A DNA stretch of 212 nucleotides. It comes from Escherichia coli (GTDB lineage: Bacteria; Pseudomonadota; Gammaproteobacteria; Enterobacterales; Enterobacteriaceae). Position numbers and translations under genes: made by a program. Where the stretch lies: NCBI RefSeq assembly GCF_003334255.1, contig NZ_QOWU01000281.1; one strand, written 5' to 3'. Positions 1-212 of this stretch are shown here, piece after piece. Positions within the stretch are counted from its first letter, which is position 1, and every line of letters starts with the position of its first letter. The notes under the pieces were generated by a model. The model made no database searches and was not told the DNA's origin. It worked only from the letters and a program-made list of their open reading frames with translations.

Positions 1-22
1 AAAAACGAGTATTTTTAGTCAT
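1..22 (-). CDS. IS3-family transposase OrfA (N-terminal helix-turn-helix subunit), 5' end only: start codon plus six codons, continuing beyond the window
   Basis: Minus-strand ATG at 22-20 followed by ACT AAA AAT ACT CGT TTT encodes M-T-K-N-T-R-F. This matches the recalled N-terminus of IS629/IS1203 OrfA (MTKNTRFSPEVRQ...). The start is preceded by a GAGG SD with a 7-nt spacer. Confidence 0.8.
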
Positions 23-34
23 CCTGTTTACCTC
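23..34 (-). promoter_or_regulatory. Ribosome-binding site for orfA
   Basis: The minus strand reads GAGGTAAACAGG immediately 5' of the ATG. GAGG lies at plus-strand positions 31-34, 7 nt from the start codon, and a second AGG directly abuts the ATG. Confidence 0.6.
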
Positions 35-51
35 TTTCTCAGGAAGTTTAG

Positions 52-76
52 TCTCCAGGATTCCCGGGGCGGTTCA
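52..76 (-). repeat. Left terminal inverted repeat (IRL) of the IS element; outer boundary at position 76, inner boundary approximate
   Basis: The outermost bases on the minus strand are TGAACCGCCCCGGGAATCCTGGAGA. IS3-family elements carry imperfect terminal IRs of roughly 25-40 bp beginning 5'-TG. The inner limit cannot be set without the right end (IRR), which is outside the window. Confidence 0.7.
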
Positions 77-208
77 ACCGTGTGGCTGTCACTTAGTCTG
101 GCGGCTATCGTGAACCGTTCAGCGAGTCGGACATTAAGAGCGCGGTTGTAGATTCAATTGGTCAACGCAACAGTTATGTGAAAACATGGGGTTGCGGAGG
201 TTTTTTGA
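77..208. other. DNA flanking the IS insertion; apparently non-coding, identity unknown
   Basis: Plus-strand stops at 94, 111, 135, 149, 179 and 206 interrupt two of three frames. The remaining frame (97-212) has no ATG and no SD-associated start. The minus strand also carries multiple stops. I do not recognise the locus. Confidence 0.5.
196..200 (+). promoter_or_regulatory. Putative Shine-Dalgarno sequence (GGAGG) for a downstream plus-strand gene
   Basis: A perfect GGAGG core lies 8 nt upstream of the ATG at 209-211, which is canonical spacing. Confidence 0.35.
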
Positions 209-212
209 ATGA
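209..212 (+). CDS. Possible start of an unidentified plus-strand CDS running off the 3' end of the window (only ATG plus 1 nt visible)
   Basis: ATG at 209-211 sits 8 nt after GGAGG, and an in-frame TGA at 206-208 lies immediately upstream, so an ORF would begin fresh here. The call rests only on SD and start-codon geometry; there is no coding sequence to assess. Confidence 0.3.

Follow-up and report, generated by a model that had tools for sequence, protein, structure and literature searches.

An insertion sequence that ends close to a start codon raises the question of whether it has landed in the regulatory region of a host gene. The window analyzed here, a stretch of 212 nt of Escherichia coli DNA taken at its full length, has the tip of an IS629-type element at position 76 and an ATG at position 209 pointing the other way. 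The preliminary description of this DNA had suggested that the insertion may have displaced or replaced the promoter of the neighboring gene. Our analysis leads to a different reading. The window is very probably a three-layer nest of insertion sequences, in which an IS911-like element was split by IS30 and then received an IS629-type insertion, with no loss of host regulatory sequence.

Three insertion sequences in 212 nucleotides

The first 76 nt of the window hold the end of an IS3-family element, read on the minus strand:

1 to 76, minus strand: left end of an IS3-family element of IS629/IS1203/IS3411 type, covering IRL, leader and codons 1 to 7 of orfA
50 to 76, minus strand: IRL of the IS629-type copy, TGAACCGCCCCGGGAATCCTGGAGACT, with its tip base at 76
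35 to 31, minus strand: AGAGG, Shine-Dalgarno of the IS629-type orfA
1 to 22, minus strand: start of the IS629-type orfA, with its ATG at 22 to 20, 54 nt inside the tip

From position 76, the minus strand of the window reads TGAACCGCCCCGGGAATCCTGGAGACTAAACTTCCTGAGAAAGAGGTAAACAGGATGACTAAAAATACTCG, and the segment in full is TGAACCGCCCCGGGAATCCTGGAGACTAAACTTCCTGAGAAAGAGGTAAACAGG-ATG-ACTAAAAATACTCGTTTTT. By megablast, positions 1 to 76 matched 22,808 places in 3,553 of the 5,426 complete E. coli genomes (E = 3e-31). Identity was 100% (76/76) in approximately 2,000 E. coli records, one of them annotated “IS3-like element IS3411 family transposase,” and 97.4% (74/76) with O157 copies annotated “IS3-like element IS1203 family transposase.” Isoform-level identity, taken as at least 95% to named copies, was found over the 76 nt of the window. 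IS1203 and IS3411 are regarded as isoforms of IS629 (PMC3271280). The IS629/IS1203-type identity proposed earlier for this segment is confirmed, with the nearest copies over the 76 nt carrying the PGAP label IS3411, and orfA is indeed transcribed leftward, its ATG opening the peptide MTKNTRF.

Full IS629-type copies in four loci measure 1310 bp, with TGAACCGCCCC...GGGGCGGTTCA as their ends. An imperfect terminal repeat starting TGAACCGCCCC was found at both ends, and the end in the window is the IRL of these 1310-bp copies. In the full copy in locus L003, IRL and IRR share 13 identical bases, followed by 3 mismatches and 9 identical bases. The 54-nt offset from the tip to orfA recurs in IS1203 copies annotated by PGAP (e.g., in L004, where the CDS ends at 2522 and the tip lies at 2576).

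The opposite side of the window belongs to IS30, on the plus strand:

145 to 146, no strand: GT, left copy of the IS30 2-bp target duplication
147 to 212, plus strand: left end of IS30, 100% identical to K-12 IS30 copies
147 to about 172, plus strand: IRL of IS30 (26 bp), TGTAGATTCAATTGGTCAACGCAACA, which begins TGTAGATTCAATTGG
196 to 200, plus strand: GGAGG, Shine-Dalgarno and ribosome-binding site of the IS30 transposase
209 to 211, plus strand: start codon of the IS30 transposase, the CDS start of WP_001254932.1 in locus L001

The gene read rightward from position 209 in the preliminary description thus has a real start, 132 bp from the IS629-type tip and divergent from orfA, but it encodes the IS30 transposase and is not a host gene. 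The protein, WP_001254932.1 (383 aa, MRRTFTAEEK...), matches NF033563 at 276 bits, with a cutoff of 80. IS30 is 1221 bp long and bordered by GT...GT in L001, L008, and L009, whose alleles are identical or near-identical to positions 77 to 212 of the window. The 2-bp duplication was read in these three loci, the right end of IS30 lying outside the window. The uninterrupted IS911-like element has one AC/GT at the IS30 site. Since GT flanks IS30 on both sides where the uninterrupted element has this single AC/GT, IS30 split the IS911-like element 5 nt past its AAAAAAG heptamer. A 2-bp duplication is characteristic of IS30, and hot-spot targeting has also been described for it (PMC9333248). A clean IS tip with a nearby ATG and Shine-Dalgarno does not by itself point to a host gene, since the ATG may belong to another mobile element, and such geometry calls for caution.

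A variant of this element was also observed. At 3126-4297 of L003, a 1172-bp IS30-like element sits in a P2-type phage tail gene and is flanked by a 2-bp duplication, AG. It has positions 147 to 198 of the window in common but departs from it shortly ahead of the ATG (GGAGGTTTGGAACTATGG), and the N-terminus of its transposase is a different one (WP_032161728.1).

Between the two elements lie 70 bp derived from an IS911-like member of the IS3 family:

77 to 146, minus strand: IS911-like IS3-family fragment, 70 bp, a pseudogene, 100% identical to genes labelled “IS3 family transposase” by PGAP
146 to 105, minus strand: last 13 codons of OrfA and its stop, TALLMSDSLNGSR
144 to 77, minus strand: overlapping orfB frame (-1), the start of the orfB part, RALNVRLAERFTIAARLSDSHT (RALNVRLAERF...)
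77 to 79, no strand: ACC, candidate 3-bp target-site duplication beside the IS tip

The origin of this fragment can be read from copies in other genomes. In an IS30-free copy (L007), which is an orfA/orfB element, the equivalent of positions 77 to 146 directly follows the A-run frameshift motif on its 3' side, and in L001 the heptamer AAAAAAG (A6G) adjoins the fragment. The complete ORFs of the IS911-like element match the IS3-family transposase model NF033516 at 268.7 bits (cutoff 160), and the relatives named by PGAP, ISEc31 and ISEc52, are approximately 94% identical over the 70 nt of the fragment. Its OrfA tail presumably resembles that of IS911. A 23-aa ORF on the plus strand (80 to 151) was set aside as having arisen by chance, antisense to the coding frames of the IS911-like element.

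Several further observations concern the IS911-like element. L007 has a run of 11 A (2075-2090) where L001 has AAAAAAG, and PGAP flags this copy as frameshifted; the run looks like a slippage expansion at the programmed frameshift site. At 111 to 121, inside the fragment, there is an 11-nt palindrome, TGAACCGTTCA, whose first 7 nt equal the IS629 tip TGAACCG. We considered this 7-mer (111 to 117) as a targeting signal for IS629 and rejected it, as a single short match 35 bp from the insertion point; the likeness of the palindrome to the tip is probably a coincidence. Elsewhere, in E. coli O103:H2 FWSEC0007 (L013, 1976-3290) and 13 further genomes, an IS629-type element abuts a copy of the same IS911-like element and cuts it short at the 5' end. 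That copy is otherwise intact and the IS629-type element lies at a different position from the one in the window, making this a second, independent entry of IS629 into the same IS911-like element.

The junction at 76/77 and the order of insertion

The preliminary description had resolved the IS boundary to the base, between positions 76 and 77, and given the canonical tip this stands. Four other copies of the element (L002-L005) match the window through 76 and diverge from 77, so that homology stops at the tip and does not run on into the flank. An allele free of IS629 was found in E. coli O43 RM10042 (L001), which matches positions 75 to 212 at 100%, as do many plasmids. Here, the IS911-like fragment and IS30 occur without IS629, and the empty site reads ...GCTGACA ACC GTGTGG. 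The dinucleotide CA at 75-76 is common to the IS tip and the empty site, and by alignment alone the breakpoint could fall anywhere from 74/75 to 76/77, a 2-bp ambiguity. This shared CA is microhomology between tip and target that arose by chance. We place the breakpoint at 76/77 because position 76 is the last base of the canonical tip, ...GGTTCA.

The composite of IS911-like fragment and IS30 is widespread, while the IS629 junction was seen nowhere else. Positions 75 to 212 without IS629 are present at 100% identity in 245 complete genomes (at least 80% coverage) and in many plasmids. Megablast found no contiguous full-length match to the window in PLSDB or in the 5,426 complete E. coli genomes, and the IS629 junction was likewise absent from both. 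At least 80% of the window was covered in 3 of the 7,698 matching records (H1, H2, and H3), each of which has another arrangement. The exact junction, searched as 25- to 29-mers over 76/77, was absent from GTDB representative genomes, JGI metagenome contigs, and IMG/VR. Because the composite is common without IS629 and the junction occurs in no collection searched, the IS629-type copy was the last of the three elements to arrive. The absence of the junction from every collection searched also points to a source strain that has not been sampled and makes the junction a possible strain-specific marker; IS629 site typing serves STEC lineages.

These observations suggest a simple series of events. 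IS30 first inserted into the IS911-like element at a hot spot 5 nt past the A6G heptamer, duplicating GT and killing the element. Later, an IS629-type element would have integrated into the orfB frame of the dead element, in the same orientation and at a distance of 70 bp from IS30, so that its IRL tip lies at position 76. Members of the IS3 family transpose by a copy-out-paste-in route with a circular intermediate (PMC9333248, PMC9330008), and the IS629-type element is expected to have moved in the same way. A simple insertion predicts a left junction of ...CAGGCTGACAACC/TGAACCGCCCCGG with a 3-bp duplication, or ...GACAACCG/TGAACC with a 4-bp duplication. The junction, of which one IS629 end is visible, probably arose by simple transposition with a 3-bp duplication. 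Nested insertion of this kind is ordinary, and all three elements, as well as such nesting, were already known. The biological weight of the event is small: an element inserted into an insertion sequence that was already inactivated, and host genes and promoters were left untouched.

Other origins of the junction and the promoter question

The triplet beside the tip, ACC, occurs once in the empty-site allele L001 and is therefore target-derived. The same three elements would also be found side by side if the 76/77 junction had come from an IS629-mediated rearrangement, such as an adjacent deletion, an inversion, an IEE-type deletion, or recombination between IS629 copies. ACC would then be unduplicated at the far end of the IS629-type copy, and the DNA to its left would not be the remainder of the IS911-like orfB. 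Perfect flanking repeats are indeed often missing around these elements. Three of the four full copies that we sampled lack one, the exception being L003 (GAA, 3 bp), and matching repeats of 3 to 4 bp were reported at only 21 of 47 IS629 sites in O157 (PMC3271280). Deletions promoted by IEE beside IS629 are documented (PMC9330008), and IS-dense regions often reshuffle, the arrangement of IS629, IS3-family fragment, and IS30 differing among L002, L011, L004/L005, and L013. On the other hand, the right flank runs on from the empty-site sequence without loss, as a plain insertion predicts, and nothing in the window requires a rearrangement. We therefore consider a rearrangement possible but rather unlikely. 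A synthetic version of the predicted left junction (the empty-site flank ending in ACC, joined to the IS629 IRR) found no contiguous counterpart among complete E. coli genomes; the search returned instead 14 genomes in which an IS629-type element lies at the 5' end of the IS911-like element, approximately 315 bp off.

How a triplet beside an IS629 tip can mislead was seen in two O157:H7 loci. A 1310-bp IS1203 occupies positions 1267-2576 in L004 and 1267-2576 in L005, at sites 349 bp apart (on L005) in the same IS600 remnant, the two loci belonging to two O157 lineages. The two alleles serve as each other's empty site, and exactly 3 bp were added per insertion. However, the triplet on the IRL side is not a copy of the target in either case (GTGAAC/IS/TAC-CTCG and CACGACC/IS/AAC-AACG), and the additional AAC found at the second site is identical to the triplet targeted at the first. 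This pattern suggests a local hop that retained a donor-derived circle-junction spacer. Consequently, a triplet next to an IS629 tip need not be a target duplication.

Returning to the window, its architecture also invites the suspicion of an assembly artefact, either a short contig bounded by repeats or a chimeric join of collapsed IS repeats. A 70-bp core of low copy number lies between two high-copy repeats, and the exact junction is in no public collection searched. Yet the join falls exactly at the canonical tip and the flank is exact from the empty site, which is the signature of transposition and not of a misjoin through shared sequence; the adjacency within 77 to 212 is, moreover, independently present in hundreds of genomes. 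An artefact of this kind seems very improbable.

The idea that IS629 landed among the upstream control sequences of a host gene starting at 209, displacing or replacing its promoter, fits the divergent geometry and the 132 bp from tip to ATG, but is even harder to credit, as the gene is the IS30 transposase, IS30 itself begins at 147, the 70 bp in between are dead IS911-like coding sequence on the other strand, and the IS629 end facing the gene is IRL, not the IRR in which such elements carry the outward -35 for hybrid promoters, according to a review (PMC9330008).

The proposed displacement of a native promoter is contradicted by the flank itself, an IS911-like fragment followed by IS30. The 62 nt between the IS30 tip and the ATG are all present and identical to those of autonomous copies. 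Because IS30 carries this whole 62-nt leader with it, the IS629 insertion removed no native regulatory sequence; what it disrupts is a pseudogene alone, and it would be expected to have no effect on expression of the IS30 transposase. Consensus and Rfam scans found no consensus-grade promoter, terminator, or Rfam family in the 212-nt window, and the stretch 147-208 showed no strong sigma-70 site in the consensus scan. IS30 is said to have a weak promoter of its own inside its left end, as reported by Dalrymple and Arber (EMBO J 1985).

The IS30 target site and comparable nests

The same IS30 site recurs in related elements. Three diverged IS911-like variants carry IS30 at the same AC/GT, 5 nt past the A6G heptamer (...AAAAAAGGCTAC/CGCGCTCTTAATG...). 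The site corresponds to positions 145-147 of the window and to 3069-3072 and 4291-4293 of L001, with counterparts in L008, L009, L011, and L004/L005. L011 carries IS30 at the same dinucleotide in the opposite orientation, and this insertion is therefore independent. In the O157 loci L004/L005, IS30 occupies the homologous codon in IS600. When reconstructed, the IS30 target resembles that of the arcA-proximal IS30 in K-12, ATTGCGTTCTTGATG (...GC..TCTTGATG). On fairly good evidence from these sequence comparisons, the frameshift windows of IS3-family elements seem to contain a conserved hot spot for IS30, and the recurrence is of the kind expected from sequence-specific targeting. A broader proposal, in which such nests arise from the target preferences of insertion sequences instead of random pile-up and IS3-family elements serve as sinks for other insertion sequences, is doubtful at present; the recurrence of IS629 in IS3-family elements was seen among loci picked by a query holding both elements.

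The individual elements and their nesting can be compared with known systems. In its tip (TGAACCGCCCCGGG), 54-nt leader, and MTKNTRF start, the left end in the window is like IS629/IS1203/IS3411 of O157:H7, O111, O26, and Shigella, with 97.4-100% identity over 76 nt. It differs from the O157 IS1203 copies by two substitutions, at positions 44 and 63 of the window. The named full copies of IS1203/IS629 are 1310 bp long, with orfA/orfB and a frameshift pseudoknot annotated, whereas the element in the window is known from 76 nt alone.

In K-12, IS911 is interrupted by IS30A, giving IS911' and IS911'' at approximately 6 min (PMC9333248). As in that case, an IS911-type element has been split by IS30 here; the loci that we analyzed are split at AC/GT past A6G, with a 2-bp duplication, and we infer from L009 that the exact site is the same in K-12. 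One candidate for the K-12 IS911::IS30A copy itself, H49, was rejected, being the IS30 copy near arcA. The element in the window differs from the K-12 case in being diverged (approximately 94% identical to its ISEc31/ISEc52 relatives over 70 nt) and in having received an additional IS629-type insertion.

A parallel in order and orientation is offered by the O157:H7 loci L004 and L005, in which IS1203, an IS600 remnant, and a left-end fragment of IS30 lie by traT and ISEc8. There, too, the IRL of an IS629-type element faces an IS3-family remnant that abuts the IRL of IS30 at the homologous codon. However, the remnant in O157:H7 is IS600 (only approximately 60% similar over this stretch), the spacing is 261 or 612 bp compared with 70 bp in the window, and IS30 is truncated.
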